Numbered from the whole stretch's first letter, positions 2,996-41,040 are shown. The stretch: 44,498 nt of DNA, filler included, from Jimgerdemannia flammicorona (GCA_003990765.1; 2 parts of 2 records of this genome joined end to end with filler, not necessarily neighbours in it); one strand, 5' to 3'. Translations and numbers: made by a program. The notes: a model not told the origin generated them from the letters alone.

Positions 2996-3037
<42 letters not shown>

Positions 3038-6272: not shown

Positions 6273-6872
6273 TAGTGCTCCTAATAAGTCAATTTAATCT
6301 GGATTGGATTCAGATTGATTTGGATTGAATCCCATCCAGATCAACTCAGATGAGATTCAAATCCCATCTGGATGGATTTGAATTAACTATTGTTTTGATT
6401 TCCAAATTAGACAATTAAATGTTTATATCAATAACTCAATAAATAATCATCCAAATTTAATAATATTGGTGTCATTTGAAAGTCCTTAATAAGGCCTACC
6501 TAATGATACCAAGAACATTGAAATCAGATCATACATTGCTGAGTTATGAAGGAAAATGTCTGAATTGCTAACTTTTGAAATTATTCAATTTGCTGATTTT
6601 GGAAATTTTGTCAAATAGAACATTTTCCTTAATATCTTGACAATACATGATCCAATTTTAATTTTCTTGGTATCATTAGAAAGGACTTATTAAGGGCTTT
6701 CAAATAAAACCAAGATTATCAAATTTGGATAATTATTAAGCAAGTTATTGATGTAAACATTTAATTGTCTAATTTGGAAATCAAAACAATGGTTGATTTG
6801 AATCTCATCCAAGTTGATCTGGGATTCAAATCCCATCTGAATTTCATTCAGATTGACTTGTTTGGAGCACTA
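6273..6872. mobile_element. hAT-type MITE, 600 bp, palindromic along most of its length
   Basis: Termini TAGTGCTCC...GGAGCACTA. The 8-bp TSD TCTAGGGG / CCTGGAGG differs only by transitions, and the homologous empty site in LINE-C reads CCTAGAGG. Confidence 0.85.
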
Positions 6873-19141: not shown

Positions 19142-19751
19142 AAATTTATATTTATTTTTCTTTGATATACTTATATATTCTTTTTATAAGGTTATGTTAA
19201 ATATATAGATTATTTTAGTCAAAACAAAAAACAAAAAATAATAATTATTTTTCTTTAAGATAATTCTGTCAGAATGAAAGAAATACACTAGATTTTAGTA
19301 TTTTATTGATAATAATCTAGTTAAGAGGAATTTATAGTATAAAAATGAAGAAATGTTCTCTGAAAAAAATTATGTTCTGCTCTCAGAAGAGCATTAGACT
19401 ATAGCTCTATTACTTACTATATTATTTTAGTTATTGAATCATTAAAAATTATAAGCAAAGTAATAGTGAAAATAAAATCTTTAAGCCTGATAAATAAGTG
19501 ATATCAAATGTTTTCTTTATCTGATTTTATTATAATATACCCTATATTATATCAGTATAGTTATCATATATTGCATTAATTCAAATAGTTCTTCTAGTTT
19601 AACTATATATTGTGACATCTACAATTGACCCTGTCCAAATTCGGAGTACTCTGTGACCACAAGATCAGATGACATTATGGTGTGATAACTGGTGACCAGC
19701 CCAATCCATCAAGTGATTTCACCAAAAGAAGACAAGATGATCTGAGCCAAA

Positions 19752-20816
19752 ATGAAGACCACGTTATTTAAGGAACCATACTCTGCCTCAGGGATTAGCA
19801 CCAAAGAACCAAGTACTCACCACACAATGCCTCCCATTTGCCGATCCAACCAGACCTCCCACCGCTCTACCCCTTTGTCCGGCCCAAAGACTCTGATCTT
19901 TGAAGCTATCAAGAAGGCCATCTGGCACCCAGATACTTCCGAACACTTGAACTTCTATACCAAGGACCTTGGACACTTCATCAACTACCAGTATATAATG
20001 ACCCAACAGCTCAAAGACACTATCAAACAAATGACCCTCTGGCATGACTACGAAATCAGACACCGTCTTCGTAATGAAACTCAAGAAGATGACCAGGAAG
20101 GCCTTATTACCGAGTTGTTAACCACCAGCCGGCTAATCAAGAGAGCCCTCCATGTCTACCAAATCTTCCACCATATCCCCTGGACTATAGCACACTTACA
20201 AGGAGTGACCACTAGAAGTCTTGCCCGCCTCTCAACTGAAGATGCAGACTGGATAGAATCTGAAGTAGCCAACTCTATTGGCAGCAACTGTGTTGCCGTA
20301 GGAAGTCAACAAACCAAACCTACTCAGCCAGGTTTCCACACCACCCTACTCCGAGACAACTATCAAGGTCATCTAATGAGTCTTATGGAGATATTTGAAG
20401 GACTGCCCATTACCATAAAAGTACCCATTGGAACTACCCCAACCACCCACCACCCTGTCAGCCACAATTCACATCTCATCATTTGGGAACCGAATCAAGA
20501 AGAAGCCCAAGAGGTCCCCATCTTTAAAGAGGAAGCCCAAGAACTCCAAGACCCTGCCCCTGAAGAAACCCCCTCCAATACTAAAACTGACGAGTTTTCA
20601 GAAGAAGAAGAGGAGCAACAGAGAGCCTACCAGTCCTCTGTCCACATTCAAGCTGTTCAAGAGTTGGAGAATGTTGTTGAAGATGACTGGCCACTTTTCT
20701 ACCCCCTTACCTCTTGGCCAGCACTCCCCCCCTTCGAGGAGAGATATGATGAAGAAGAAATCGCAACCCAGCAAGATTTGCCCACCGCAGATGAAGGGTA
20801 CTACTATTCCCTTTAG
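19752..20816 (+). CDS. LTR(U3)-encoded hypothetical protein, 354 aa, acidic C-terminal tail
   Basis: Intact 1065-bp ORF; homologous to 23277-24509 and 37084-37905. Confidence 0.8.
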   Translation: MKTTLFKEPYSASGISTKEPSTHHTMPPICRSNQTSHRSTPLSGPKTLIFEAIKKAIWHPDTSEHLNFYTKDLGHFINYQYIMTQQLKDTIKQMTLWHDYEIRHRLRNETQEDDQEGLITELLTTSRLIKRALHVYQIFHHIPWTIAHLQGVTTRSLARLSTEDADWIESEVANSIGSNCVAVGSQQTKPTQPGFHTTLLRDNYQGHLMSLMEIFEGLPITIKVPIGTTPTTHHPVSHNSHLIIWEPNQEEAQEVPIFKEEAQELQDPAPEETPSNTKTDEFSEEEEEQQRAYQSSVHIQAVQELENVVEDDWPLFYPLTSWPALPPFEERYDEEEIATQQDLPTADEGYYYSL

Positions 20817-20856
20817 AAGCACCACCTGTCAGCCATGATAATTGTGCAGCCTTCAT

Positions 20857-21012
20857 GTCAGCAAGTCAGCAAGTCCAAATCCAGCATTACTATCCAGTGC
20901 CACTATTTTCAGTATTTTGTTAGCAAGTCCGTTTTCAGCATTGCCACCCTCCATAAACCATTTCTGGCAACAATCATTATAGTAAGTCAGCAAGTCCGAA
21001 TCCAGCATTACC
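20857..21012 (+). repeat. Three dispersed ~25-bp direct repeats (GT(C/T)AGCAAGTCC....CAGCATT), enhancer-like
   Basis: Copies at ~20866, ~20918 and ~20986, between the ORF stop and the TATA box. Confidence 0.7.
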
Positions 21013-21231
21013 ACCCACAACATCCATATCCAGCACTAGCACTCATCTTATCCCTATTCGGCACAAACAATTGTCACATCCATTTTCAGCGTTGCTATCC
21101 CCTACAACCCAATCCGTAGTAAACAATAGCCTGTACCTTGCATCATGCAAGCCAATAGCATAGCAAAGTTCGCCACAATGTAGTATACCTTAGCCTTAGT
21201 TGTGCCCCCTCCCCCATAGCTAGCAAACTTG

Positions 21232-21263
21232 TATAAATAACCCATATTCTTAGAGTGAATAAA
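21232..21263 (+). promoter_or_regulatory. LTR-1 TATA box and poly(A) signal
   Basis: TATAAATAACCC followed by AATAAA; matching motifs occur in LTR-2 and LTR-3. Confidence 0.6.
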
Positions 21264-22201
21264 TCTCAGTCAGCTTGTATTTAAAAAGTAAAAAGGATTA
21301 CTGAGAAACCTCACTATCTCCAAGAGACCAGATAAATTCTGAGAACAAGATAACAACCTAGAGCAACAGATTGCTCAGAAGTTTGAGTTAAAGAATTTTC
21401 TCTTGCCATAGAAAGAAAACATTACCCAACTACTGTCATTCGAGACCCAGAAACCCAAGGATTCAAGACCATGACCGCTGCGCATTCAGACTGCCATTCG
21501 GACTGTGCATTCGACCACCATTCAAGATTCAAGACCCGAAAACCCAAGTTACCCAGCCAAAGGATACAAGGCCGCTACCAAAAGACCTGAACAATCGCCA
21601 GGAACCTTTCAAGTTGACTAAGATGGATGAGCGAGCCATCAACCTCCATTTTCTTTCCCTACTGTGCTACGAACTGCTTAAAGCCAAGCCCGTTACCACA
21701 TAAATTCAAGTTCGCTGCCAAGTTAATTGCCACCAGGAGACTTAGCCAGCATAATCGCTGCCCTTTTCCACTAAACAATTGAGCCATCAATGTCCTGAGC
21801 CAACGAACAATCGAACTCCCACAATTACCACATGAATCGAACGACCCGATCACATGACCAATGACCCACGAACATTACCAACGCCTTCAGTTATACATCG
21901 CGCACTTCACCAGTGGCACACATTGAGCTGTGCAGTTGAAGTTCATTATACATAACCAATGCCACATTTTGGGGGCTCAACTGGGAAAGTTTTCAAAAGA
22001 CTTGACCATTTGGCTCAAGAACCCAGCTATCTACAGTAGAGAACTTAGCAGGACCAAGTCAGCAACCAAACCAGGGGCAGCAACAGCCCTCCTCAGCAGA
22101 AAAGAAAGCCCATACCCTTGTCAGAACAGTAGCCAGGACCCTATTCAACAACAGTAGCCAGAAAACCAAATCAGAAGAAAGAAGTGACCCAGATTACGGT
22201 T

Positions 22202-22301
22202 NNNNNNNNNNNNNNNNNNNNNNNNNNNNNNNNNNNNNNNNNNNNTTAATTAATTAANNNNNNNNNNNNNNNNNNNNNNNNNNNNNNNNNNNNNNNNNNN
22301 N
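22202..22301. other. Artificial contig spacer (N44-TTAATTAATTAA-N44)
   Basis: Six-frame stop linker centred in an N run, exactly 100 bp in total. Confidence 0.97.
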
Positions 22302-23123
22302 TTTTTTAATGAACTCAATGTCCCACAGATTTTTATTGGAAGGGAACCTAGACTGTATAGGCCAAAACCCTCCCCCACCACCCACCAAGTACTGCCCCCC
22401 CATTAACCTAGACTAGCTATTGTCTAGTAACTTGACCATACTAGGTGCAGCAGAGCCAAAGGAGGCCTACACCTCATTCTGCGCACCATGCTCTCTCTAC
22501 TACCAGGGGAAACCCAGCCATATGCTAATGTCCAAAAGTGCATGCCCGAGAACCCAACATATATACAAGGCCACACCCAAGCTGAATAGAATAGCCCCTA
22601 CCACCCTAAAGAGAATGACAGGCAGAAGAAAAACTCTCATCAAAGCACAACATGGTGGATAGGGCCTGGTTCTCCCAGTCAAGGTGAGTAAAGGACTTAC
22701 ACATGAGGCAGAAGGAGACCCCCAATATCTCACTACTCAAGTCTGCAGACCTCGATCACATTGCCATATCAGCTCTCGGTTCCAGTTGAGTACAGCCAAG
22801 ATGCCTGAAATGGGTAGCCTCGGGCCCCCCAACCCCCCCTGATGACTGGGGTCCAATCTGCCTGACCACCAAAAGAAGCTGAGAGTGATACCTATCATAT
22901 AACTATGCTGTACCAATTAAAAGGCCCTACCGAAGCAGCATCTACTCCAGCCCCAACAGCTGCCCCTAGCCTGGCACTCTACTGGTCCACCATTATCACT
23001 CTTTCTCTTATCTGTGATGGCCATCTCCCCTCCCATCCTGACAACACCCAAAAAGCAGTCATCTATGCCAGAACTGCGTTTGCTAGGAAGCTTGCCAAAG
23101 CCAGAGAGCCCCACCACAGGCAC
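22302..23123 (-). mobile_element. Probable 3' end of a different LINE family (host of the solo LTR; resumes at ~25193-25260)
   Basis: T-run at 22302 with a minus-strand AATAAA nearby; G-rich minus strand; FCLMCK...HH relic resembling the ORF2 Zn knuckle. Confidence 0.45.
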
Positions 23124-23276
23124 TGTAAGTGCACAACCTCCAAGCCACTGAAATTACACGTCACCCTCTGAACAAGCCACCAAAATTACACGCGACCTCT
23201 GAATAAATCTGGAAATCACTTGCTTGATCATGAAGCTGAGTCAAACCGAAGTCACAGCACACAAAGCTGAGTCAAT

Positions 23277-24509
23277 ATGAAGTCACAGAATACAAGATTT
23301 ATACAAACGGAATCTTACCAATCAGGACCAAATACATATATACTGAGCACCGAGATACATCAAATCAGAGAACCAAAACAAATAATAACCACAACTTCCA
23401 AATACACAAATATGACCACCAAGATCTACAACTGTATCCATACTGATATTTGGAATGCTATTGTCAACCGAGCTACACCCCCTCTGCCCCTCATGAATAT
23501 CCATAGCCTGGCACCCCTCTACTTCGTGGAAGTCCGATGGAATGCTCTGAACATGCTTAGCGAGGCCCACCGAATCGGACAAATCTCAAGCTACTACCAG
23601 ATTGGCCGCCTCCTGGAAGACATAGTTGAACACCACCATGATACAGACATTATGCAGATGTCTCAACACCAGAAGCTCATCACCCGCAAACATCGAGAAC
23701 TCTTCTATGAGTACAATACCTTTATTCCCCACCTCTGAGTCACTACCAGCGAAATAGTTGCTACCCTGTCCTATGGCCAAATCGATGACATGATACAAGA
23801 ACTCAACCACAAGTACCTCGAATATGTCCAGACCACAGACAGAACCTTCCCACACCCTGATGACCATATCCTGCAAATGCCTCAAGTTGGATATGCCATG
23901 AAGGACGTCTATGACATAATCCACTTCGACGAAGATGAAGCAGAAGACAATGATCCCTCTGACGCTGACATGACCTCTAGCCAAGGATCTCTGCCAACCC
24001 TGATCACACCGCCAAACTTGCCGATGAACTTACAACAGTTCATAACAGTATACGAGACTTATTGGGACAATGACCACTGGTATGAATACCAACTCACGTT
24101 CACCCCTGATTACTTCAATTACAATGAAGAGACCGGAGAACACAACCTGTACCTCCAGACAACCCTCGAGATTGAACCAACCACTCCACTACCTGAGTAC
24201 GAGCAATATGAACTACAGCTGCCAGCTTACTACAATCCTGCAACTCATAGTACTGTAACTCATAGAAGGTATGCAGACAGTGAATCTGATGAAAGCGAAG
24301 ACAATATACCCATTCTTTGCCCACCAACACCCTATCCAGCCTACAAGACAGACGATGCTATCCTGTGGGACGGAGATGAAGTCCCAATGTATTACTACCT
24401 CAGCAAACAAGGAGAAGTAATCCACGAACCACTCTTCCTAGACAACTACTTCATCAGAGATGATGCAATCGATGGTGATGTCATTGAAGACTACCCAGAC
24501 AGCGCCTAA
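23277..24509 (+). pseudogene. LTR(U3)-encoded protein, ~410 codons, split by one in-frame TGA
   Basis: ORFs 23277-23738 and 23790-24509 are in the same frame. They are separated only by TGA 23736-23738 (likely CGA>TGA) inside the conserved IPHL*VTT motif. The C-terminus is D/E/Y-rich. Confidence 0.8.
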
Positions 24510-24550
24510 ACCCATAAATAGCCTAGCAGTCATAGTATAGTTAGATTAAC

Positions 24551-24644
24551 CTTGTACGACATGACTGTGAACTGACTCAGCAGTCAGACAATCTCTTGAT
24601 ATATCAGATCACACTTGTACTACGTGACTGCATTCTGACTCAGC
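24551..24644 (+). promoter_or_regulatory. Duplicated ~31-bp enhancer-like repeat, each copy with a TGACTCA (AP-1/Gcn4-type) site
   Basis: CTTGTAC.AC.TGACTG....CTGACTCAGCA occurs twice; sites at 24573 and 24636. Confidence 0.6.
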
Positions 24645-25500
24645 AAGGCACTTAGTGCTACATCCATATTCAGCATAGTCCAGATAGCCCCTCACTAGTA
24701 TAAATACCCCCTCTCCCAGACCTCAGAATCTCAGACTTGAACAATTCGAACACAACTCCTAAGCACTTCCCCACAATATCCCTTCACACAACTACTCCTA
24801 GTATAGAAATATCATGAATAGTGAATAAATCTATTTGATAACCCACAAACTACTCTTAAGTAAATCCACTCCCTGTTAGGTCTTACTCCTAACTCTGTCA
24901 CGAAATTTCCTAATTGGGTATTGTCTGCAGCGATACGCCAATTCAACTAAGCTGGTCTTAGTTTCTTGAACTTCCTGAAATATGGAAAATCCTGAACATC
25001 CAGAACTAGTCCAAAAAAGGACTTTGGTTGAGATGTCAACCCGATCTTGAAATCAATAAGCGTAGAGGACATACTCCATATGAAATTGATCTTGACCATA
25101 AGAAACCAGTCTTCCAGAACATCCAGAATATCTAGAAAACCTTTCCAGAACTACATAATGGTCACTATAAAAAGTAACCCTCTTACAGGTACCAAGGACC
25201 TACAGATAACCTACACTGAGCACTTAATGCCCAAGGTCAGCTGACTCCCTATGTAGCCTGAGACATACCGAGACAGCACCTTGTTGGTGATGACAAAAGG
25301 AAGAAGGCACCAGAAACTATGAAAAAGTGGAGAAGACACTGATCTGATACTGATAAAGGGCCATTGTCCTCCTCCCACCATATCCATGTAGGCACAGCAA
25401 ACTAACTCGAGATAGAGGGGGTAATAATAGGAGAAAGGGGACTCAGAAGGTTGCCTACCAAACCTTGTGACCAGTAAGGTAGTGGAGAAAGAGGTATATG

Positions 25501-28500
25501 AAAGGTAGTTTTCTTGATATCTTATACATAGAAGAGTTCTTCTCATTTGGGCTCCAGTTTTTATAATCATGAGGCTTCTATCATATTTTGATACAGTAGG
25601 ACCTTTTCTCCAATTTGGATGAGTTCTAGGGTCTTGTGATTCTTTTCTACATTCTTCCTTGTCAGCACTTGTAACTTGATAATGTAATCTTCAGCCTTCT
25701 TCCTGATTTGGTATAGTCTCTGGATTTCTGCATCGACCTGTCTCCAAGTTAGATCTAGATTTGTGACTAAGGTTCCATCAGAATCTTCTTCTCTGAAGAG
25801 CAGTTCTCTTGGAGTAAAGTGTGTGTTCTGTAACCATATATCCTGTAGGACAGAGAGGGCAGTTGAGAGGTAGTTATCCTATTCTTATATATATCTGAGA
25901 TCTTTGTCAGTGTGTTTTTGAGGATTTTATTAGTTCTCTATCTGTCTATTTTCTTAAGAGTGGTATACAGTGGTCTTGATGTACTAGATCTTATATTTCT
26001 GATATATTATCTCATGGAATCTATTGACAAATTCTGTACTATGGTCTGTAGTGATTTGCCTTAGTGTCTTGTAGTGTCAGATGATTTCTCAGTATAGGAA
26101 GTTAGCTATAGAGGGCATTGGCTTCTTGTAATACTCCTACTTCTATCCATTTGGTAAAGAGGTCTACAATAACTATAATATAGCAGTTTCCTGATAGTAT
26201 TACTGGTAGTGGCCCAATGATATCTATTGCAATGTGGTAGAGGGGATAGACTCAATTCTTGATGACCCAGATATCTGATCTTACTGATCTTATTTCTGTT
26301 TTTGGCACTTATCACACCCTTTGACAAATTGGTACAGGTCTTCTTCTATCTTGGGCCACCATATAGTTCTTCTTACCTTGTTGTATGTATTGGTTCCTCT
26401 TAGGTATCCTTGCTTATATACTTTCTTTATTACTTGATACTTCTTGTATTCAAATATTACTAGCTTTCCTCCTTTTCTAAGTGTAGTGTTGTTTAGTTCA
26501 AACTGTTTCCAAGTCTAGTTGATGATGGTAATTATCCAGGGTTTGAGGTGGTTGAACATTGTTCACTGCCTAAGATAGCTGATTAATCCATAGTATAACT
26601 CCTTATTTATATTGAATAGTCTTGATGGGGATATTTTGAGGTGTCCTTGAGAGTACATCAGCATTAGTGTTGGTTCTTCCTAAGTAGTACTTGACAGTAC
26701 AGTCATACTCTTGTAACCTGTAAATCCATTAGACATATATTCTTTTGGGGTTCAGAGTGTGGAATAGCCAGACAAGAGCAGAATGGTCTGTTTGAATGGT
26801 GAAGTATTTCCTGGCTAGATAGTAGTGGAACTTGTCTACTATCCAAACTACTGCTAAGCATTTGAGCTTGCATAACTTATAGTTCTGTTCTGCTCTATAG
26901 GTATCTTAGCTTGTATAGGAGATGATATATTCATATCCATCTTTCTTCTAAGCTAGGACTGCTCCAAGTCCTATAGTACTTGCATATGTCTGCAGGATAA
27001 ATTCTAGGTTACAATCTAGTCTTCTGAGGATAGGTGCTTGGGTCAACCTAGTCTTGAGTTCATTGAAGATTTCTTGGTATTCTTTGGTCTATTTGAATTT
27101 GGTCTCCTTCTTCAGTAGCTTGTAGATAGATACAGTAATATTAGAGTATCCTTTAATGAATCTTCTATAGTAGGAGACCAGTCCAAGGAAGATATGGACT
27201 TCTGTAGTTGTTCTGGATCTCAGGTAGACTGCAACAGCCTCAATCTTTATAGAGTCTGTGTGGATTCCAGTCTGGTTGATGAGGTGTTCTAGGTAGGCAA
27301 TTTCCTGAGCTATAAACTTGTATTTCTTGGGCTTGATGTAGAGGCCATACTCCTTGAGCTTCTTGAGAGCTAGCTGTATGTAATTGTCATATTTCCATAT
27401 AGTATTGCTGAAGATGATCACATCATCAACATAGACAAAGAGCCATTTTCCAATCTTATTGCTAAAGACTCTATTTATTATTCACTGAAAACTTACTGGG
27501 GTATTGTACATTCCAAATAGCATTCACAGGTAGATATAGGTAGTATCAGATATGATGAAGGCTGATTTCTCACTGGTATCTTGAGTGAGATCAATCTGAT
27601 GGAAGTCTGAGAACAGATTCAAGGTGGTGTAGTATTTGGCTTCACTTCCAAGAGTGGTAAGGATTTTTTGAATATTTGGTAAGGGCTGCTTATCCTTCTT
27701 AGTAATTGCATTAAGCTTCCTATAGTCAATATAGAGGCTTAGTGCAAACTCTCCAGGCTTACTTTCTTTCTTTAGGGTAAGGACAATGGGTGAAGCCCAG
27801 AGACTGATAGCTTGCTTGATGATTCCAGCTTCTTCTATTTCCTTGAGTTCTGCTTGCAGCCATTCTCTATAGACAGGTGGTATAGATCTGACTTTCTGGT
27901 AGATAGGTTTGGTGTCACTAGTGTCAACTTCATAGTAGTACTTGGGTTCTTGATTATGGATATCTCTGAAGTCTGTAGCAAGTACTCCTTCATTCTGATG
28001 CAGGATCTTGAGAAGTTATTCTTCCAGAGGAGAGTTTTCTTCAATGGTATATGTGTGCTTGTTCTGGTCCTTGTCTTTCTTGTACTCAAGTTCAGTAATC
28101 TTGGTGGTGGCATAGGCTCCTCTTCCAGTAGATCCAAAACCTTATTCTCCTCTCTTAGTCTTGATGAGTTTGATGGCTTCAGTGATCTTAGGCTTCTTGA
28201 TTTCATGGATCAGTATCTGGCCAATCCTGTCATACTTCTTGACTTCAAATGGGGTGGTGGGGTTGTGATTCCTGACTATGAGGAAGATCTCACTAATATA
28301 ATCAGAGTCAATTACTTCTCCTTCAACTAAGATTTTGCTTTTGGCCAGACTGCTCCTGATCTTGATAATTCTAGTATGGTTCTCTAGCAACTTGACTCCA
28401 ATTCTAGTACCAAGTAGGGTGGTGGTCTGTAGTTTGAGAGTAGTATCTTGAATGCTGGCAAGGTCCATTCCTATGGCTCCTTCAGTCTTGTATTCTGGGA

Positions 28501-28551
28501 TCTTGACTTTGGGGTGGAACTTCTTAATCTTAAGAGTGATATCTGGTTCTT
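25501..28551 (-). mobile_element. Decayed Gypsy pol (copy B): dUTPase-RT-RNaseH-integrase
   Basis: RT motifs LCIDYRKLN-like, LNLFSDFHQI and FVYVDDVIIF (~27415-27440); FLGLVSYYRRFI; integrase with KLEPKW. Colinear with 40620-43683. Confidence 0.93.
28124..28550 (-). pseudogene. dut: dUTPase domain of Gypsy copy B
   Basis: Motifs GMDL, RSSLA, VIDSDY.SEI, DRIGQ and RGE*GFGST. Confidence 0.9.
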
Positions 28552-31500
28552 TTTTTTTTTTTTTTTTTTTTTATAGTCACTTGGACTCCATCTTTATTAC
28601 TAGTCTATGAATAAGTATATAGTATCATTACCCACTACTCAATCCCCATAGGAGAGCCCCTCCCCACCTCCTCATGAATAAAGATCACCCTCTCACCCAC
28701 TACTCCAACTTTCCCCCACTCTGTCTACAGATTTTCTCCACCAAGTAGTACCTCTGACCACCCTGCAACCTCCAACCAAGCCACCAGCCTGTCAAGGTGT
28801 CTTCCATAAGACTATGCTACTGCAACAACTGGTCCCCCAAGCCCTGTCACCTCCCATCCTCAAAAACAAATAGCCAGTGACTGGCCAGCCCCACCCAAAT
28901 AACCAAAGCCCAGCCTAAGGTAAGCCACTCCTTTTCTACCCCTCCTACCAATCAATCCCTCAAGTCCTCCCACTGCCCCCACACTTCATCTCCCTTACAC
29001 CTTACCCCTAAGTGATCCCCAATGGTCTGCCAAAAGTCCCCCAGCACCTCATATTCTCCTAGCCAATGTTCTGGCATCTGTATATAACTTCCTTCCTGTC
29101 CTACATTATGGCACTCCTTACAGTCAAAGCAGCCCCCTATGATAAGATGATCTGAGTGGAAGTTGAGTATTACATTCCTCCTCAGTATATGCCACCAGAC
29201 CACCCAGTACTTCAACAACATCCACTTTCTCACTGTGGTACTCTAGATCCAAACACCATACCAGTTCTACTCTTCTCCAATTCCAACTCCTTATCAACTA
29301 CTAGGCCACAGATCCTGGCCTAGACCCTATTGGTATTCCATTCTATCACCAATGTCAAACTCAATTAAAGGAATACAACCCAGCAGTATTTGATCCCATC
29401 TCCACATTACCGGGTCCCAAGCTATCTCTCCATTATTTCCCTACTAATGAATTTCAATATAGTGCACCCCCTTTGCTATCCTCTACCAAAATCCTTTATA
29501 TCACAATTGTTCAGTATTTCAAAGTCCAACCAATACAAGGAGATCACCAGTTGAGCCTCTTAGTGATGACCACCTCTCCCAGACCTTCTGCAGCAGGGGA
29601 ACTCAACTACCTCCTCTCAACTCTACCACTCTCTTTAGCCACCATGCTCTCAAGCAGTGTAGCTGTTTTGGAAAGTTAACCAGCCCAAGGTCTCCCAACT
29701 GATCTGACTCCTTCTGCCAGCCCAGATCCATCTCTTTGTCAGCTTCATCAATCACTTCACTACTTAGGCTGGGAAGTCCAGATAATAAGTCAGATACCAC
29801 AACTTTGGCAGCTAATAGATATTCAAAATCGAAACACATCCTGCCAGAGAAAGATGTCTTCCCCCCCAACCCCACAGGGCCTCCTCCCAGATTCCAATCC
29901 TCTGCTCCCACCAAAGCCTGGGTAGAACTGACCCATAGACTGACAGATAGATGCCCAAGTACTATACTGTCTCACCAGTGGGGACAATTGTTCCTATAAC
30001 CTCTCCTCCTACCAGGCCATTGCCTAGCACCATTGTTTCACACTTGTATCAATTAAGCTTAGCCCCAGAGTTCTCCTCATACCACTCTACTGTCTTCTTG
30101 AGCTCCTCGACATCAGCAATTGATCTCAAGCCAACCACTATGTTATCTGCAAAGGCCCCAACTTTCCACCCAATTTCAAAAACAGAGAGCTCCACTATCC
30201 TCTGCCTAATTCTGTCCATAAGGGGTTCCAGGGAAAGAGCATACAAAATGGGGAACAGTGGGTCCCCCTGGGGCACCCCCCTACCCAGGGGGAATACTAT
30301 CCCTCTATGTCCATTACACATGAGTGCAGCTCTACTCCCTTCTGGTAGGCTGACTATTGCTGACCAGAATCAGCATAAAACCCCAGTTCTATCTAATACT
30401 TTCACCAGCCAAACTTGTCACATCTGGTTGTAAGCCTTCTCCTGGTCCAAGAAGACTAGTTGCCCATCCAGTCCACAGGTCCTTACCTCTTCAATAACTC
30501 CATATACCTAGGCTGTGCTATCCCTAATGAGCCAACTACTCACAAATCTCCTCTGCTCAACACCCATGACTTGCTGGGCCACCTTCTGTAGCCTTACAAC
30601 TACTACCTTAGTTACTAACTTTCTGTCTATATCCAACAACATTATTGGCCACCAGTTCTTCCAATCCTCTCACCTTCCTTTATTCTTATAAAGTAGTATT
30701 GCCAGTCCAAGATCCTGCTCCCCCACCCATCTCCCTGTCTATAGAATAAATCACACAATGCTGTCATCTCTCCCATCACTCTTGGGACTCCCACCATTCA
30801 CTTCCAGAAGTCCCAGGGCAGACCATCCTCCCCAGGGTACCATGCCTGGTGTCATCACAGCAAGAATCTGGTGGATCTCATCCTCCTGCACAGGCAACAC
30901 CAAGTCACCTAGCCTCTCTACTTGTGGTGGGTACCAATTCTCCAATGTTTGGTCAATGGCAGCAGCATCCACCCCACCCTCCTCCTCACTCCACAATCCA
31001 CTCCATCGCTCCTTCAATGATCTAAGAATATCCTGTACACCATGTACTAGTACACCATCAGAGTTAAGTACCCCTTCCCACTATTGCTATATCCTTCTTA
31101 CCTGAAGGGCCCTCATAAGAAATTTGGAAGGCCTCTCCCCTTCCTCCAGATCCTGCCAACAAAGCCATGCTACCAAGCTTTGTACCCTTACTTCTTCCTC
31201 TTCCCACAGCACCTGTTGTAGTTCCCCAACCTCTATCTTTGCTCTCATTAATCTCCAGTCTTCTCCCCCCTCCAACATCACTAGTCTCGCCTACTCCTCC
31301 AAGAGTCTAGCCAATCTAATAGAAGCCCAACTCACTCTTTGCCTTCTCTGCTTCTCTGCCTCCTTGCCAGCCTCACTCCAGTAGATCTTGGCCATCTCTT
31401 TCATCCTCATCCACTGAATACCAACTGAGGCACCTTCCTGCCACCAGTTCTCCACCCTCAGCTAAATGTTCTTAGTCTACTCAACCCACCAGGCCCTATT

Positions 31501-34368
31501 ATCTAATAAAGAGGAATTTAGGCACCAATATCCAGGCCCATCCCAAAGTGCCCCTGTCCCAAAAGCCCCCAGTAATCTGACCATAGACACCATTCCACCT
31601 CCAGTGACTTCCAAACATCTAGACTCTAGCAACTGGCCATCAGAATTCAGTCAATTCTTGTCCCCAGGCCCCCTGCCCAATGCATATAAACCCTTCTATC
31701 CCCCCAGTACTCCCTACCAGCATCTACCAGTGTACCTAGTCTTTCTACTTCCTTCCATACCACCAGCCCTCCACTTCTGCTCTCAACATCTTGTCCCATC
31801 TGTTCTATCTATCAGTATATCCTGAACCATATTGAAATCTCCTCCAAGTATATCCACTCCAGCCTCTGTAAGGATCCAACTCTCCTGGAGACCCTTTACC
31901 CAATCTATACACTCACTCTATATAGCAGAGCAGTAACAGGAGCCAACTATAACTGGCTCTTAGCCAGCATGAATCCACTCACCCCAGACCAGTCTTTCCC
32001 CCCAACTTCTCATATCCCTTATCTCTCCTCTGCCTTTCTGAACCAGAATCCCAACCTTGCCCTTCCAAATCACCACACCTCCCCATTCCTTCATCCATTC
32101 CATCCTATTGGAGTCATTCTCACACCTGATATTCTGTAAGAGGAAGAGATCAGCCTTCAATCCCTTCAGCCAAGTAAAAATGTTCCTACATCTAGCAGTG
32201 TCCCATAACCTATTCACGTTCAAAGAAAAAATATTGGTTGTACTATTCATAGTAAAATATGTTATGTTATCAGTCAATTCCTACTGCTCTATATTCATTT
32301 CCTCCTGTGCTATGTCCAGATTATATTCCACAGTCACCTCCTCCTCTTCAGCCCTCTGAGCCTCCAATCCAGCCAACAGTTCATTCATCTCCCCATCTGC
32401 CTTTTCCTCAAACTCCTCTCAGTACTCTAGGCAGGCCTCCTGCTAGAGCTGCAATCCATGATGCTTGTTCCAGCAGTATTCAGCCCTCTCTCCAGCAATA
32501 ACTACTAGCTCTGCCTCCCACTCCTTATCTACCTTATATCCTTCCTCCTCTAGATATACCACAAGAATTTCCACCTTCAATGCTCTCATCACTCTATCCC
32601 TCTACAGTATCCATGCCCAATGCTCATCACTCATCACTCTCAAGTCCACCTCCCCCAATTCTTCTGCTGTTAGATTGTTTATCATCTGGTACATCCAAAG
32701 TAGGTTCCCCACCTCCTTCCCTCTAGGAGTCACCAGCCTCTCTCCATCCATCATTGTGGTATCAGCCCCAGTACTTGCAGACTTATCTCATACCTCTGAG
32801 ACATCCACCAGTTCCTTCTCTCTGGCTGCCACCACTTGTCCCCTGTTTGCTACCTCCGGAACTCTGAATTTCACCTACTAGGCCCCCCACATTGGCACAT
32901 CCTCCACTACTCTGTTTTGAGAAGCTGGGCCTCACCTGATAAGAAGAGTAGGGGTAGGGGAGTCCTCTCAGTCCACCTTCCAAACCTCCAATATACCATC
33001 AGTATATGGGTCATTACTAGTCACCTCCTTATCCTCCCCTGTCTCCTTCTTGGCCTTCCCACCCCCCTCACTGGCCCAGACACTCACTTTGGCCCCCCCT
33101 GTGCTCTTCTTCTTGCTTGTATCCTCCAGTGGTCTGCCTTCCAGCTTAGCCAGCAGATCCTTCTGTCTCTTATGCCCCTGTGCTCTTTCCCACTACTCCT
33201 TATCTACTTGAATCTGCTTTCCATCCACCACCTCCAAGTAAGTCAACTCCACAAAAACCTTCCAAGCCTTTGCTCACCACTCTACAGCACTACTCAACTC
33301 TTCTAGTGCTTCCAATAAATCCTCTTCCTCCTCCTTACTTCCTTTCACCCTTGTCACTTTGTATAGGATTGCTCCCCAGATTATTACTGAAGATCAGTCC
33401 CTCACCTTTCCAGTAGCTTCTTTCTCAGCTAGCTGAATTCTTATGTCCACATCACTAGTTCTGAGTGAGGTCCCTTCCCAGACCCTGAATCCAATATCCA
33501 CTATCTCTCCATATTCTACCATGACTTCCTCAACTTGCCTTCTCATCTCTACTACCATCACCATGGGCACTCCTTTCACCAGCAATTGGACCACCCTGGA
33601 ATCTCATTTCAGGCAGCATACCATCAGAACACATACCTCCCCAACTACCAATCCAACCTTCAGTGCCTCCTCTATTAACTCAGCCTCCTCAAAACCCACT
33701 TCTACTCCCTCTAATCCCTTCAAAAACTTCACAGACATAGCTCCTGCCACCTGCTTAGTGATAAGCCCCAGTACCATTTTCACCATCACCACTAAGCCCT
33801 GGAAGCACAGTGTAACCATGAATACTGAGATTGATTTTTTGAGTAACAGGACCACTGCCAGGCCTGTCACACTATTCACCAAATCCCCTAGTCTTCTAAG
33901 CCTCAACCACTCAGCCTCTCTATCAACCATTACATCTGGATTTTTTTCCAGATTGATAGTTCTGTTACCATCAGCAGTCACACTCTCCCCAGCTGCTACT
34001 CTCCTAGCTCTACTGCCCCCTCTTCCAAGGGCTACTCCCCCATACACTGCTGCCTTCTCAGTCTCCTTGCCCTTCCTCAGCCAGTCTTCTAGCCCTGATG
34101 TCTGCTGTCTTCCCTTCACTATCTCTACAAAGCTCACCCTCTCAGACCCTTGGCCTTTACTACTACCTCTACCCCTTCCATGTCTACCTGCCAGCAGCCC
34201 CCTCATGCCCCCCCCCCAGGCCCAGGCCTCTCCCCACCTGCTGTCAGTCGAAAGTGCTTGAGCCACTCTACCCAGTATATATCTCAGATTGCCTATTAGT
34301 CACTATGTTGTTAGTCTCTTTTCTTCAAAAATGATATTGTAAGTACTTTCCAAAGGTTGTGTAATCTG
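28552..34368 (-). mobile_element. Full-length decayed LINE (LINE-C, 5.8 kb) inserted in Gypsy copy B
   Basis: Poly(T) at 28550-28572. Perfect 16-bp TSD GTGATATCTGGTTCTT (28536-28551, 34369-34384). APE MNSTTNIFSLNVN at 32250; RT GVPQGDPL, AFADN; C-terminal CKEC...H. Confidence 0.93.
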
Positions 34369-34903
34369 GTGATATCTGGTTCTTATTCCTCTTTATCATC
34401 ACTATCAGCTTGAAGCTCTGGGAGCTGGTCATCTTCTTTAGCTTTCCTTTTTACTTCAGCAGCTTCTTACTCATGCTTCTGTTGGTAGATTTTCCTGACT
34501 TTATTAATATAGGACCAGTAGACATTTAGGTATTTAGAGCAGTACATCCTAGTATCATGGGGGCATATTCCTTAAGGGGCATAGCTATTGATGATCTTGT
34601 TGTACTACTGCTCATCTGTGAGCTTTGGTGTCTTGTTCTTATTCTTATTCACTAAGTACATAAAGACTTCTATATCCTTCTCATCTCCTTTCTTCATGTC
34701 TGGTAGAACTCTTTTGTGAACATTGATAGAGACTTGTACCTTTCTTCCTCTATAGTTAATCTACATCTTCTGGGCATTGAGGTCAATGATGGTCTTGGTC
34801 TTGTGAAGCCATTAATTGCTAATGAGGATATCATAGTTGGTGATACTTATAACAATTATATCTACTGGGATGGTGGCTTCTCTTATCTTGATGGAGACTT
34901 CTC
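34369..34903 (-). mobile_element. Gypsy copy B upstream remnant (protease C-terminus and linker)
   Basis: Reverse complement is colinear with 40088-40630. Confidence 0.85.
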
Positions 34904-35681
34904 ATATTATTAATATACTGAATTCAAATATTAAAGCAATGATATTTTGTCTAAAGAAGGCTATTTAAGTATATTTTCTACTCATAATAAATTATAATTT
35001 ATTTATTAAATAGATTAGTTATAGTTTGAAATTATATAAATTACTAGAGTATTAAATATATATAAAAATAATAGGAGAATAAATAGATATTGTACAGAAA
35101 AGACTAATATTAGGTAACTAGAAGTATATAGTATCCTCTAGTAAAACAAAAATCAATTATTTTGGATTCTGCATATGACATCTGCCTTATTTGGTCATCT
35201 TTGAATTGATATCATATGACTTTTTCACATTGAAAATGCTGTGAAACTACTTTAAACTGACTGTAAAACTACTGCAAATACTCAAATAATATATTATTAT
35301 AATTTCAAATATCTAAGATACTATAAAATTGAATCAAAGATATGAAATATCACTTAATGCAAGTCATATAACATTGATTGACGTAAAATTCAAAGATGAC
35401 GGAAAAAGGCAGATGTCATATGCAGAATTCTTTTTGTTTTATTAGAGGATACTATATACTTCTAGTTACCTAATATCTGTCTTTTCTGTACAGTATTTAT
35501 TTATTCTCCTATTATTCTTATATATATATTTAATACTCTAGTAATTTATATAATTTCAAACTATAACTAATCTATTTAATAAATAAATTATAATTTATTA
35601 TAAGTAGAAAGTATAATTAAATAGCCTTCTTTAGACAAAATATCATTGCTTTAATGTTTTAATTCAGTATATTAATAATAT
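34904..35681. repeat. Foldback/MITE-like inverted repeat, arms ~300 bp
   Basis: 34904-~35210 is the near-perfect reverse complement of ~35380-35681. Confidence 0.85.
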
Positions 35682-35846
35682 ATTATATATATTTATATAT
35701 ATTTAAAAAGAGTTTTTTTATTATTTTTTTAAAAGATAAAATAAATAAGATTATAGAGAAATATTAAAAGAATAATTATAATAAGTTTTAAATATATATA
35801 TCAATTTATTGTCTATCTATTAAATAAAGAATATTTATAAATAATT

Positions 35847-36061
35847 TGGTTCCAAAACTGAACCAATAAATTTTTTTTTTTAGATTTTTTTTTAAAGATA
35901 AAATAAAAATTTAAAAATAATAAATTTAATATTTTTAAATATCTCTAATATAAAACTATAATATATTATAATATAAAATATATTTATTTAGAGTATTTTT
36001 ATTTAAATAATTAAAATATAAAATTTAATAAAACATTAGTTCAGTTTTGGAATATACTGTA
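35847..36061. repeat. Short inverted repeat, possible Tc1/mariner-type terminus relic
   Basis: TTCCAAAACTGAACCAAT / ATTAGTTCAGTTTTGGAA, followed by TATACTG-TA. Confidence 0.35.
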
Positions 36062-36826
36062 GGAAAAGATTAGATAATAGCTACTGGTATGATATAAGGA
36101 CTATATATATATTATAGATTAGTTAATAAAGAAGCCTAGTGCTCAATAGAAAAAAAAAATTAAAAAAATTAAAGCTACTAAATAATATCAATTTAATAAA
36201 TCAGTAATACCTAGAAATAAAATAGTATTAAAAGATATCTATATATTAATTATAATGAAATTCTGTCTATTAAATTATATTTATTTAATATGAGATTAGA
36301 TTGTTGAGCTTTTTTTGAGAAGGATGGAGAATTATAATATTATGATATTACTCTTATTTTATCTGAAGTATCTGGCAAAGATTGTTATACTCTTTTCTAT
36401 AGGTCTCTAGAATATTATTATGAACAGTATCAGTACTTAATAGATATAAATTATACTTGAGAAGGTCAAAGATATCATATAATTAGTTACTTTTAATAGT
36501 TATAAATAGTTGGTTTATATATATAATCTAGTAAATAAGTTAATTTCAAAACTCTATTTAAGTATATAGCTAAATAATTTTAATTAAATAGAGTTATTGA
36601 TATAGAAGAGTCAAGTAATCACATTTTGAATTTTATTTTTTCTATATTTTTTTGGATTTTATCTAAATATCTTTCTCTTATATATTAATATATATTTAAA
36701 GTTGAACTACTATATATCTTGAACTTCTAACTATATAATATATGAGATTAGCTAAGTTAAGTAGAATCAATATTATATATATATACATATTATATAATAT
36801 GTTTATTATATCAAAATTATATATAT

Positions 36827-38421
36827 TGTAATGGTGATCTCAGAATAATGATATCAGTATAGAAGACAGTCTTTCCTTATAAGTTACCAGATTAGAGCAT
36901 AAGAAGATCATATGGCATAACTCACCCAGACTATAAGATAAGCTATAATAACCAACTGTGAGTCATTAAGACCACAAGACAGACATCTCAAAGAATATAA
37001 AAAAAGGATCAAGGAACTACAGTAGTAGCAACTTAATAAGACCCACTAATTCCAAAATAGCTCAAAGACTTACTATAAACAAAATGCCTACTACTTGTCA
37101 AATCTCAAGATTAAGAAACTACCAAAACCCCTCAGTCTAGAAAAGGATATTTCAAGACATCTAAAGAGCTATAAGGATCTATACCATAAGGACTCCTAGT
37201 GTTAACCTGGATACTGGCAACTCTTATCATTATATTCTCTACTACTATAAAATGGAAACAAGAATTACCATTACTACTGAATGCCTCCAGATATGATAAG
37301 AATATGAAATAGGAAACCTCCTCTGCTGGGAACTTCCTCAAGTTAGCCCTCAAGAGCTATAAGATACCACTTCTATGGATATATGTAAAATAAGGATAGC
37401 TAAGAAGATTTATCAAATCTTCAGACATATACTATAGTTAATCCCCAACTTGGAGTATACCAAAGTCTCAGACTTCAGAGATCTGTCAGCCCACTGTATC
37501 AATGCACTAGAAGTCATGGTGACTACAGAAGCCCAGTCTACTATTACTCTCAATAGTGATGAGGTAAAAGAGTTCTAGTATCTCATTCTCTAGAACAACT
37601 CAGATTAATTCTTACAAGAATTGATCTCAGTATTCTAAGGTCCAAGCATCTAAGTTAGACCTCTTCAAGACTCTACATTTGTCTCTTATTTTGTAGAAGA
37701 GGATTTCATAGACTGGAGAGCCTCTGATCTTTTTGCTCTCCCTGTTATCAAATGAAATGACATCATCAGCAATGATATCATTCTGTGTGATATATGCAAA
37801 ATATATGACAAAGCATATGAAATGAATGAAATATTTACAGACCTTATCTTCTTTGAGGACAGTGATAAGGACAAAACCCCCATGGTTCTAAACTTTCTGC
37901 TCTGAGTTCTTAGTGATACTGAATTCTGCTAGCATCCTTTTCCTGTATAATAGTTAATCCTTCTACTAGTATTCTGATCCTATATAACTCTGAATTCTTC
38001 TAGTATCCTTTTTCTGTACCACTAAAATTCTATCAGTACTCTGAACTTATACAACCATCTGTATCAATACTGAAATCTGTACTGACAACTGTAGTTTTCT
38101 GTATTTCAGTATTTTATTTAGTTATTGAAATTTATATTTAACTTTATATATATCTTAGTAACCATTGAATTATATTTTATATAAATATCCCTCTTATTTC
38201 CTTTGAAATAAAGTCAGTTCCTCTTAGTGTAATATATATAATTTCTTATAAGCAATCTAAAGAGATAACAAGACAGTTTAAAGATAAGAAGTTTGAGGAC
38301 TATAAGACCTTAGGAAGGTACTCTAATAAGAACTTACTTATAACAAACTTGAGTTAGTCTAAGAGATATACCTTGAAGAGAATCTAATATATTTGAAGGA
38401 CTCAGTGACTACTATGTAACA
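36827..38421 (+). repeat. 5' LTR (LTR-3), ~1.6 kb
   Basis: TGTAA...TAACA termini; TATAAATA at 38180; AATAAA at 38207; followed 3 nt later by a PBS. Confidence 0.8.
37084..37905 (+). pseudogene. Decayed LTR(U3)-encoded protein, absent from the ORF track
   Basis: Frame-intact manual translation: MPTTC...RIFQDI*RAI...I**EYEIGNLL...IAKKIYQIFRHIL*LIPNL...ELISVF*G. Confidence 0.8.
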
Positions 38422-38424
38422 ACT

Positions 38425-38440
38425 TGGTGCCCATTAGCTA
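38425..38440 (+). promoter_or_regulatory. Primer binding site (TGGTGCCC...)
   Basis: TGG start just after the LTR-terminal CA and before gag; tRNA identity not determinable. Confidence 0.65.
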
Positions 38441-40620
38441 GTGATTCAAGATGAATTTCTCACTTTCAAGCTGAAAAATAAACAATCACCATAATAACTA
38501 CCCTAACTACAAGAGTCCCCTCTATAAGAATTCAAGATAAGATAGAAATTCATCCCCCCACATTCTATAGATATACTACTAAAGAGTCAATTCTGACCTT
38601 TATTGAAGACTTTGAACAATTCACTATCATATGAGCCCTTAGCATAGATATATAATTGACCCTTCTACTAGTTAGTCTCAGAGGACCTGTTAGAGATAAG
38701 TTCAATACAGCCACTATTGCTGATGCTGGTGCAGCCAAACTTACCAACATAAAGATCTTCCTCAGAACTATATACTATACTGAAGAGATCAAGCAAGCTC
38801 TCAAGGATCAACTCAATACTATCTGCTAGAGACTCAGTGAAGATCTCAACTCATTCTATACCTGAATCTGCCACCAAATTGTCTTAGCTAGCTATGATGA
38901 CTGCCTCAAGAACCAAATAGCTAATTCAACCTTTCTTAAAGAAGTTCATCCTGAAATTGCTCTAACAATCCAGTCTACCCTAGCTGCTCTGACTCTTGAT
39001 CAGAAAGTGATCTTTGCACAGAGATATTAGACTACCAGATACCCTGCTAAATACTTAATGGAGAAAATAACTGGTATCAAGATAGAGCTCTCAAAGCCAA
39101 TCAGTATCATATCTGCCATAGTTGTAAACAGATAACTATCCCCACCTACTCCCAAGATAGCTAAAGCTGACCCAGTAGAGGAACTTATCAAGCAGTTTAC
39201 TAAGATGACTATATATCTTAGTGATGTTGTTAGAGAAGTCTGAAGTACCAACAGGAGACTAGTATAGAGATTTTCAGTTGCTACAGAAGAACACAATATT
39301 ACATACTTCAGATATAAAGAAGAAGGCCACTATACAAAGAGTTGCATGACTGAAACAAGATGTAAAGCTCAATCCAACAATACTACTAAAGCTAGAGAAC
39401 AAACTAATACAGTAGTCATCAAGGAGATTGGTGACACTGATAATGAAAAATACTATGAGGAGTCAGAATTTTATTCTGTTACTGAAGATACCAGAACTCA
39501 GTCCAAGCCCTATAATAAGAAGAGCAACCACAAGCCAGTTGGAAGACCAAAAAAGACCCCAGCTATCACTATTCAAAGCAAGACCCAACTCAAGGAGATT
39601 GATCAAGATATAGAGTTAGATGAAGCTACCTGCCAAATTATTAAAGACACTACTCCAGTCTTAGGAGAAAGTGAAAGCAAGAAAGAATAAAAGTTGCACA
39701 AGACCAAGATCCACTAGTATGATATCTACAAAGATCTCAAGGAATAGAAGATTAATACTACTTTTGAACAACTAGCTGAAGTCTCTGCCTTCAGACAGTA
39801 GTTGAGAGTAGGACTTGCAACTACTATCAAGAATCAAAAGTAAAAGATTGTAGAAGCTCATAATATATAAGAAGAATCTGAAGACTTAGGCAAAGAATCT
39901 GAAGACTAGTGCAAGACATCAGTCTATACTCTATGTCAGATTGAAGATTATATCTTTGATACTATTATTGATATTGGTGCTGGAGAATACCTTATAAGCA
40001 AGAAGACAATTGACTGCCTAGGCTGAGATATTGAAGAGTCTACTAAGATAGTCTATGTCACATGAACTACCCTCCTTGACAAGATCTGAGAAGTCTCCAT
40101 TAAGATTAGAGGAGCTACTATCTCAGTAGATATAATTATTATAAGCACCACCAACTATGATATCCTAATTGGCAACTAATGGCTTTATAAGACCAAGGCC
40201 ATCATTGATTTCAATGCCCAGAAGATGCAGATCAACTATAGAGGAATAAAGGTATAAGTCTCTATTAATGTCCATAAAGAAGTTCTACTAGACATGAAGA
40301 AAGGAGATGAAGAGAACACAGAAGTCTTTATACACTTGGTAAACAAGAACAAGAACAAGAACAAGATACCTAAGCTTACAGATGAGCAGTGATACAACAA
40401 GATAATTGATGGCTATGCTTCTCAAGAAAGATGTCTCCATGGTACTAGGATGTACTACTCCAAATACCTGAATAACTACTGGTTCTGTATCAGTAAAGTC
40501 AGAAAAATCCACCAATAAAAGCATAAGTAAGAAGCTGCTGAAGTAAAAAGAGAAGCTGAAGAAAATGACCAGCCTCCAGAGCTTCAAGCTGACAGTAATA
40601 ATAAGGAGGAACAAGAACCA

Positions 40621-41040
40621 GATATTACTCTCAAAGTTAAGAAGTTTAACCCCAAAGCTATGATCCCAGAATATAAGACTGAAGGAGCTATAAGAATGGA
40701 CCTTACTAGCATTCAAGATACTACCCTCAAACCACAGACCACCACTCTACTTGGCACTAGAATTAGAGTCAAGTTGCTAGAAAACTATACTAGAATTATC
40801 AAGACCAGAAGTAGTCTGGTCAAAAGTGAAATCTCAGTTAAAGGAGGAGTAATTGACCCTGATTACACTGGCAAGATCTTCCTTATAGTCAGAAATCATA
40901 ACTCCACCATCCTATTTGAAGTCAAAAAGTATGACAAGATTGGCCAGATGCTGATCTACAAAGTCAAAAAGCCTAAGATCACTGATGCCATTAAACTTAT
41001 CAAGACTAAGAGAAGAGAACAAGGCTTTGGATCTACTAGA
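40621..41040 (+). pseudogene. dut: dUTPase domain of Gypsy copy A
   Basis: All five trimeric dUTPase motifs: (G)MDL, RSS, GVIDPDYTG.I, IGQ, R..QGFGST. Confidence 0.93.

Follow-up and report, generated by a model that had tools for sequence, protein, structure and literature searches.

A candidate accessory-gene family, probably within the long terminal repeats of Ty3/Gypsy retrotransposons of Jimgerdemannia flammicorona

Introduction

Accessory genes in U3, the unique 3' region of the long terminal repeat (LTR), are a hallmark of a few complex retroviruses. The sag gene of mouse mammary tumour virus (MMTV), a mouse betaretrovirus, is a sense gene of about 1 kb that lies wholly inside U3, 5' of the LTR promoter in the 5' copy and 3'-terminal in the genomic RNA, and it needs a separate or subgenomic transcript; its product is a type II membrane glycoprotein. 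The nef genes of the human and simian immunodeficiency viruses (HIV, SIV) and the tas/bet genes of foamy viruses are 3' regulatory or accessory genes that reach into U3, and foamy viruses use an internal promoter. LTR retrotransposons, to our knowledge, are usually described with extra open reading frames (ORFs) only between their LTRs. Here we analyse a stretch of 44,498 nt, filler included, from the fungus Jimgerdemannia flammicorona (GCA_003990765.1; the whole stretch is called the window below), in which three blocks on the plus strand each carry a related ORF (A, B and C), one of these blocks standing at the 5' end of a Ty3/Gypsy element.

Extra ORFs between the LTRs appear, in the passages cited here, in several elements. 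The plant Gypsy elements Retrosat2, RIRE3 and RIRE8 have an additional ORF, ORF0, in their internal region (PMC3485330), ORFs captured downstream of pol are described from LTR retrotransposons (PMC6431247), and CERV of Cer1 from Caenorhabditis elegans is an extra-ORF case in the internal region of a Gypsy-type element (PMC10309623). In the same kind of source, a dUTPase between protease and reverse transcriptase (RT) is reported for PosPlaTy3-5 of Postia and cited for Tmt1 of Tuber (PMC2864245, PMC6431247).

We are inclined to read the three ORFs as members of an undescribed accessory-gene family located in U3 of unusually long (1.6-1.9 kb) fungal Ty3/Gypsy LTRs. The one copy with a readable interior belongs to a dUTPase-bearing element and is joined to that Gypsy interior. 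The family is conserved across subfamilies whose non-coding LTR DNA cannot be aligned, and its position relative to a promoter-like core is fixed in all three copies.

Results

The three ORFs and their protein family

ORF A (19827..20816, +) is intact and encodes 329 aa from a conserved start, MPP, which is M26 of the longest form (354 aa, from 19752). ORF B (23412..24509, +) has 365 codons from its likely start, with a longest form from 23277, and contains one in-frame TGA at 23736-23738. ORF C (37084..37905, +) is a pseudogene: its 273 codons include 12 internal stops, but the frame is never shifted. The start of A at 19827 and the likely start of B at 23412 were chosen because the homologs begin at the residue matching M26 of A and because a common start context, ACTYACCACAAACAAA-ATGCC, is found in block 1, block 3 and L001, a contig of 1535 nt that was the single one recovered from a metagenome scan and that holds an intact 291-aa ORF of the P0004 type (see below).

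The original prediction had lined up short motifs of the three proteins by eye and taken them as homologs, and this alignment is reproduced with MAFFT and HMMER. ORFs A and C are related by blastp at E 1.8e-9 (25.5% identity over 200 aa); the pairwise blastp comparisons of A with B (E 0.68) and of B with C (E 25) are not significant. A profile built from five intact members gives 219.6 bits for C and 16.6 bits for B (E 6e-7 for 3 targets), colinear over 140 positions, and a profile of seven members gives 17.8 bits for the first 210 residues of B, a score reached by none of 2000 shuffles (best 9.2 bits) and far from that of the reversed sequence (-1.5 bits). Since the score with the seven-member profile exceeds all shuffles, we take ORF B to be a distant but significant member of the family.

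A search with ORF A among 1.84 billion cluster representatives gave seven matches, four of which are subfamily-level relatives: P0002 (74% identity to A), P0004 (35%), P0006 (32%; 342 aa) and P0007 (26%). Two more relatives, P0001 (76% to A) and P0003 (66% to the portion of B that follows its stop), came from word-indexed searches. The family clusters comprise 13 proteins in six clusters, on contigs of 829-19434 nt, with P0012 on a contig of 19.4 kb and P0006 on one of 4.8 kb; scans of viral contigs and of prokaryote genome contigs found no family member. Intact ORFs occur in at least four subfamilies, with a mutual identity of 25-35% over about 200 residues. ORF C is 59% identical to the intact P0007, and of the 11 stops that could be aligned 10 stand opposite W, Q or R and one opposite E. 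Because the stops fall at such residues and no frameshift is present, ORF C is a once-coding gene that was point-mutated by transitions. On this comparative evidence the three ORFs represent one real, unnamed protein family with intact relatives elsewhere.

The proteins divide into a conserved N-terminal domain and an acidic, aromatic tail, as had been proposed. The N-domains are near neutral (pI, the isoelectric point, 5.4-6.6), and the tails have a pI of 4.1-4.3, with 20-31% D+E, 9-14% F/W/Y and 7-11% proline. The tails bear short acidic-hydrophobic motifs, and a motif near the C-terminus, P-x-V/I-L-N-F, is common to P0006, P0007, C and L001. No transmembrane-like segment was seen, the maximal 19-residue Kyte-Doolittle mean being 0.59-1.27. 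Both AlphaFold models that we obtained, each of low confidence, show an all-helical N-domain, and the protein may accordingly be pictured, with low confidence for the helices, as a helical N-terminal domain of about 200 aa followed by an acidic, aromatic and proline-rich tail.

The family had not been recognised from the sequence in the original prediction, and no described family in Pfam or the PDB matched it. Pfam gave no match at E <= 0.01 for the ORFs of the window, and none at E <= 1 for the members of an 11-sequence family alignment (A2), and a profile search of the PDB gave no match at E <= 10. In the ESM Atlas the best score for A was 0.76; the N-domain of P0006 scored 0.90-0.91 to unnamed bacterial clusters, with a low feature count and at chance level.

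Layout of the three blocks

Block 1 (candidate LTR1, 1828 bp; 19611..21438, +) runs from TGTGAC to ACTACTGTCA, with a candidate end ...CTGTCA, and is preceded by degraded sequence of 24-32% GC. Block 2 (candidate LTR2, 1888 bp; 23013..24900, +) runs from TGTGATGG to AACTCTGTCA, also with a candidate end ...CTGTCA, and block 3 (LTR3, 1595 bp; 36827..38421, +) from TGTAATGG to CTATGTAACA, ending in ...TGTAACA. Termini of the TG...CA type are present in block 3, and the 3' ends of blocks 1 and 2 are candidates only. All three blocks follow one order: TG, a leader of 216-399 nt, the ORF, direct repeats specific to the block, TATAAATAnCCC, AATAAA and ...CA. Every block opens with TGT(G/A)A, and the distance from TG to the first ATG is 141, 264 and 257 nt in blocks 1, 2 and 3, respectively. 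The shared layout that had been described, including a spacing of 140-260 bp between TG and ATG, was found again with each feature in its place.

In three of three blocks, direct repeats separate the ORF from the core. In block 1 they occupy 20846..21100 (+), between ORF A and the TATA core, as four 31-nt copies and a 51-nt pair; in block 2, 24543..24645 (+), as two 40-nt copies, each with TGACTCA; and in block 3, 37919..38018 (+), as two 29-nt copies. The core motif that follows, TATAAATANCCC, occurs exactly three times in 44.5 kb, always on the plus strand and 190-416 nt past the three stop codons, against 0.06 occurrences expected, and none of 100 shuffles reached three. The core regions are TATAAATAACCC in block 1 (21232..21263, +), with AATAAA 26 nt after the core start, and TATAAATATCCC in block 3 (38180..38212, +), where this distance is 27 nt; the core of block 2 is TATAAATACCCC (24699..24710, +), and the next AATAAA lies at 24824-24829. 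Predicted promoter-like and AATAAA signals in sense orientation are common to all three blocks. That two unrelated-looking blocks share the order ORF, repeats, core argues that ORF and core form one unit.

A second TATA-like box precedes the ORFs. It is TTATTTAAGG in block 1 (19764..19773, +), 63 nt 5' of the conserved start codon of ORF A and a putative promoter element, TATAAAAAAAGG in block 3 (36996..37007, +), 88 nt 5' of the ATG of ORF C, and TATAAAAG in L001, 81 nt 5' of the ATG; blocks 1-3, like L001, have a box of this kind 63-88 nt ahead of their conserved ATG. Outside this region little is shared at the nucleotide level, in line with what had been noticed by eye: sensitive blastn among the blocks and L001 aligns only coding sequence and the 38 nt that precede its ATG.

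It is worth noting that five of the 11 TGA(G/C)TCA sites of the window, a motif that we take to be the bZIP/Gcn4-AP1-type consensus, are in block 2 (23237-24642); the total of 11, against 8.3 expected, is not above chance. Four of the five lie inside two direct-repeat pairs, one 5' (23233-23294) and one 3' (24543-24645) of the ORF, and the remaining one coincides in part with the TGA that interrupts ORF B. Repeats may likewise lie on either side of the gene in the subfamily of L001 (168-205 and 1479-1525), as they do in block 2.

Block 3 and its Gypsy interior

Block 3, the best case for an LTR, is followed directly by a PBS-like site (PBS, primer-binding site), TGGTGCCCATTAGC (38425..38438, +), which begins with TGG 3 nt past the terminal CA of LTR3, and then by gag, protease, dUTPase, RT and integrase, with the TATA core 241 nt before the block end. 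By position, block 3 is the 5' LTR of this element, a Gypsy copy that we call G1(+). The interior occupies 38422..43683 (+), where 43683 is the minimum extent, and includes a gag frame with a decayed zinc knuckle near 39301 (from frame reading), a protease (RVP_2, 39895-40230, +; Pfam E 1.6e-7), a dUTPase (40531-41157, +; Pfam E 7.7e-22), an RT from 41319 (+; Pfam) and an integrase whose homology to the other G1 copy reaches 43683 (+; alignment). The ORF was also considered as a duplicate of gag, an idea rejected with an hhalign probability of 0.1% against the G1 gag.

The claim that all three blocks are Gypsy LTRs, made in the original prediction, stands in part: block 3 has the Gypsy interior just described, and blocks 1 and 2 lack a recognisable gag or pol, no block being paired in the window. 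Matches to a PBS picked out by eye at 21914 and 25160 were dropped as not significant by shuffles. A reading of block 2 as 3' LTR to the second G1 copy, G1(-), was rejected too, as the homology of G1(-) ends at 25502 inside integrase and no opposite-strand similarity to block 3 is found.

Contigs of other sequencing runs (X1, X2, X3 and X5) bear on the edges of block 1. Some align only from 19611 (X2 record 8) or 19618 (X3 record 16), and at the far edge one stops at 21443 (X5 record 30) and one starts at 21456 (X1 record 6), with unlike letters beyond; this hints, if weakly, at repeat boundaries at 19611 and about 21440. Further contigs of X1, X2 and X3 align only from 21215, and others of X2, X3 and X5 only up to 21269, again with unlike letters beyond; because the alignments break at these two positions, the core of block 1 is kept inside otherwise different sequence. 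Related sequence is present in many short contigs, with 323 records from X1 and 29-55 each from X2, X5 and X3.

Sequence setting

The window consists of nested, decayed retrotransposons of eukaryotic type, with stretches of 17-30% GC and strong strand skews. It contains an assembly join at 22202-22301, where two 44-N runs surround TTAATTAATTAA, a six-frame stop linker for contig joining. Because of this join the three-block finding spans two contigs; the sequences to its left and right are not necessarily neighbours in the genome, and the sequence after block 1 is cut 763 nt past the block end (21439..22201, +; no recognisable gag or pol). When 118 stop-to-stop frames were searched with Pfam, both strands gave RT, integrase zinc-binding and dUTPase domains, and one piece of DUF7869 was present as well.

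Six-frame self-comparison and nucleotide alignments resolved two copies of the G1 family. The second, G1(-), lies on the minus strand at 25502..28535 and 34369-34907, is split by a nested element (about 28536-34368) and is cut at both ends; it is 86% identical to G1(+) over 708 aligned bases at the integrase ends, and no LTR of G1(-) lies within the window. Its dUTPase is at 28145-28570 (-; E 4.4e-21), and both G1 copies place the dUTPase between protease and RT. A chromodomain was not detected in G1. From where block 2 is taken to end up to the break of G1(-) in integrase, some 600 nt (24901-25501) have no other match in the window and none in Pfam; they may represent the leader of the element to which block 2 belongs.

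A second Gypsy family has a GC skew of up to +/-0.5 and long ORFs on both strands (28536-34368, -; 1-10700, +; 17868-18717). Its copy of about 5.8 kb is the element nested in G1(-), and at least two further copies lie in the first 10.7 kb. At 15906-16124 (+), within AT-rich decayed sequence, a 73-aa frame matches DUF7869 (Pfam E 2.9e-6) and is probably a remnant of another mobile-element protein. Finally, an inverted repeat (34917-35186 versus 35408-35668, up to 91% at the level of protein words) lies within the 17-20% GC stretch that is found between the remnant of G1(-) and block 3.

Discussion

In the LTR that we propose, TG would be followed by a leader that carries a TATA-like box 63-88 nt ahead of a conserved start context, and then by the ORF, family-specific repeats, the core TATAAATAnCCC with its poly(A) signal, the R and U5 (unique 5') regions, and ...CA. 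The sequence order makes placement of the ORF in U3 likely. If the downstream promoter drives the genomic RNA, an ORF upstream of it can travel with the element solely as a piece of U3, which is regenerated from the 3' copy; the ORF would then be located at the 3' end of the genomic RNA, like MMTV sag and part of HIV nef, and would probably be duplicated at both ends of the element. Its own promoter would sit in the 5' part of U3 and the LTR poly(A) signal would be used, so that the LTR would amount to a small gene set before the genomic promoter. That the ORF is transcribed from its own upstream TATA to the LTR poly(A) signal, as an mRNA of about 1.1-1.5 kb, is a fair conjecture on which we would not yet count.

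Several observations weigh against this reading, or against parts of it. No partner copy of any block is present in the window, which takes in only one end of each element, and identity between the two ends of an element, the trait that defines an LTR, is absent from view: the 3' end of G1(+) lies beyond the window, a contig end cuts the block 1 element at 22201, and a junction at 25502 closes the sequence that follows block 2. After blocks 1 and 2, neither a recognisable gag or pol nor any similarity to the leader or gag of G1 is seen, and the G1 PBS-like site has no significant counterpart, as 118 of 300 and 66 of 300 shuffles, respectively, score equally. Both ends of block 2 were set solely by analogy with blocks 1 and 3, and its AATAAA is at +125 nt from the core rather than at about 26 nt. 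The database homologs are annotated as hypothetical proteins only and come without genomic context. The two AlphaFold predictions, made from shallow alignments of 11 sequences, have a mean pLDDT (predicted local distance difference test) of 38.4 and 44.6, too low for a fold. Lastly, the 22 best-supported differences of ORF A from related contigs fall at codon positions one, two and three in the proportion 9/4/9, with no excess at third positions, and so there is no sign of purifying selection among close copies.

The original prediction had held that conservation of the proteins implies selection, and this holds across the diverged subfamilies and finds no support among the close copies. At long range the indirect case is strong: intact ORFs are found in diverged subfamilies while the surrounding DNA has become unalignable, and protein similarity that outlasts alignable flanking DNA argues for long-term selection on the protein. 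Between the window copy and the related contigs (19000-22201; X1, X2, X3 and X5) nearly all differences are transitions (113 of 120 in X1), and the window has A/T where the contigs have G/C in 75 cases, versus 38 of the reverse. Such a bias fits C-to-T mutation of the window copy of the kind caused by repeat-induced point mutation (RIP), with ORF A still open.

The absence of a third-position excess among close copies would also suit an alternative in which a cellular gene, or one from another mobile element, was captured once into an ancestral LTR and rides there without service to the element, its conservation stemming from recent spread or from a host-type function. The proteins have, moreover, no Pfam match and no relation to a retroelement protein, including the G1 gag. 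We nevertheless consider such a passenger unlikely, since the intact ORFs are at 25-35% identity in at least four subfamilies amid unalignable LTR DNA, since the position of the ORF and its start context have been kept, and since no homolog among the 1.84 billion representatives is longer than 342 aa or has a Pfam domain.

In the main structural rival the blocks are divided differently, with the 216-399 nt from TG to ATG as the true LTR, the ORF as the first internal gene (an ORF0) and TATAAATAnCCC as an internal promoter of gag-pol. All copies do lie 5' of the interior, no 3' LTR is in the window, and the TATA-like box before each ATG could be the LTR promoter of such an element; upstream extra ORFs are known in plant Gypsy elements, for example Retrosat2 in the passage available (PMC3485330). 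However, this division leaves only about 30-60 nt between TATA and ATG for R, U5 and PBS, and no AATAAA is seen on reading 19611-19826. The AATAAA 26-27 nt past the downstream TATA core in blocks 1 and 3 suits instead an LTR whose poly(A) signal is used in the 3' copy alone, and, as a weaker point, the contigs of other runs break at 21443 and 21456 and not beside the ATG. We judge this arrangement to be slightly less probable again than a passenger gene.

That the ORFs are a dispersed gene family or belong to another repeat class, with one copy by chance beside a Gypsy 5' end, is very improbable: blocks 1 and 2 indeed have no adjacent retroelement genes and the homologs no known context, but the same 12-nt core follows all three ORFs, that of block 3 lies 241 nt from the end of its LTR and about 320-330 nt 5' of the first gag-like residues of G1 (near 38510), the TG starts are sharp against degraded AT-rich flanks, and related sequence recurs in many short contigs.

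If the ORF is indeed an accessory gene of the LTR, what might it do? From its acidic tail, and from the repeats that separate ORF and core promoter, we would guess, with much doubt, at a regulatory role for the element: the protein might be an element-specific activator of transcription or might counteract silencing, its tail serving for activation or interaction and the nearby repeats being its possible targets. A fuller scheme, more speculative still and in our estimate rather unlikely, is that each LTR is a self-contained unit of two promoters, the upstream one for its own protein and the downstream one for the genomic RNA. Solo LTRs would then be working genes, and dispersed LTRs would supply a factor in trans that activates the downstream promoter through the adjacent family-specific repeats, or that shields this promoter from silencing, with protein and repeats diversifying together. 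Were this so, a fungal retrotransposon would possess a transactivator circuit like that of a retrovirus.

More generally, if the ORFs are LTR genes, long fungal LTRs are more than regulatory DNA, solo LTRs could stay coding, and repeat masking hides a real protein family from gene annotation. The elements would also offer a tractable system for studying retrotransposon self-regulation or counter-defence against the genome. The profile, the start context and the promoter core put a testable family at hand.

As for precedent, our full-text search, which covered the main text of the accessible papers, turned up no ORF family embedded in the LTRs of fungal retrotransposons; its results were limited to MMTV sag and to uses of the terms in other senses. 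As far as we have found, a protein gene embedded in the LTR of a fungal retrotransposon would be new, and what is already known are the U3 genes of a few retroviruses and the dUTPase placement of fungal Gypsy elements. Fungal chromoviruses with a dUTPase include Tmt1, PosPlaTy3-5 and the Phanerochaete elements. G1 has its dUTPase in the place that is reported for PosPlaTy3-5 and cited for Tmt1, and differs in that no chromodomain was detected; the available passages on those elements do not mention an ORF in the LTR. Retrosat2 ORF0, the ORFs found after pol and Cer1 CERV, in the parts of the sources at hand, resemble the present family as lineage-restricted, fast-evolving accessory proteins of unknown or regulatory function. 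They lie between the LTRs, whereas the present ORF is 5' of the genomic promoter and inside a terminal block.

The retroviral U3 genes come nearer in position. HIV/SIV nef and foamy-virus tas/bet merely overlap U3, belong to complex retroviruses and have no sequence relation to the present family, and the internal promoter of foamy viruses is paralleled by the TATA-like box that we propose as a promoter upstream of the ORF. MMTV sag shares with the present ORFs the placement, presumed in our case, of a sense protein gene inside U3 and upstream of the LTR promoter. In contrast to its glycoprotein product, the proteins described here have no hydrophobic segment and no Pfam match, their host is a fungal Ty3/Gypsy element, and the duplication in both LTRs is what we would expect of them rather than what is in view. 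By sequence and topology the family is a member of none of these groups, and by position its closest analogues would be MMTV sag and, in part, HIV nef and foamy-virus tas/bet.

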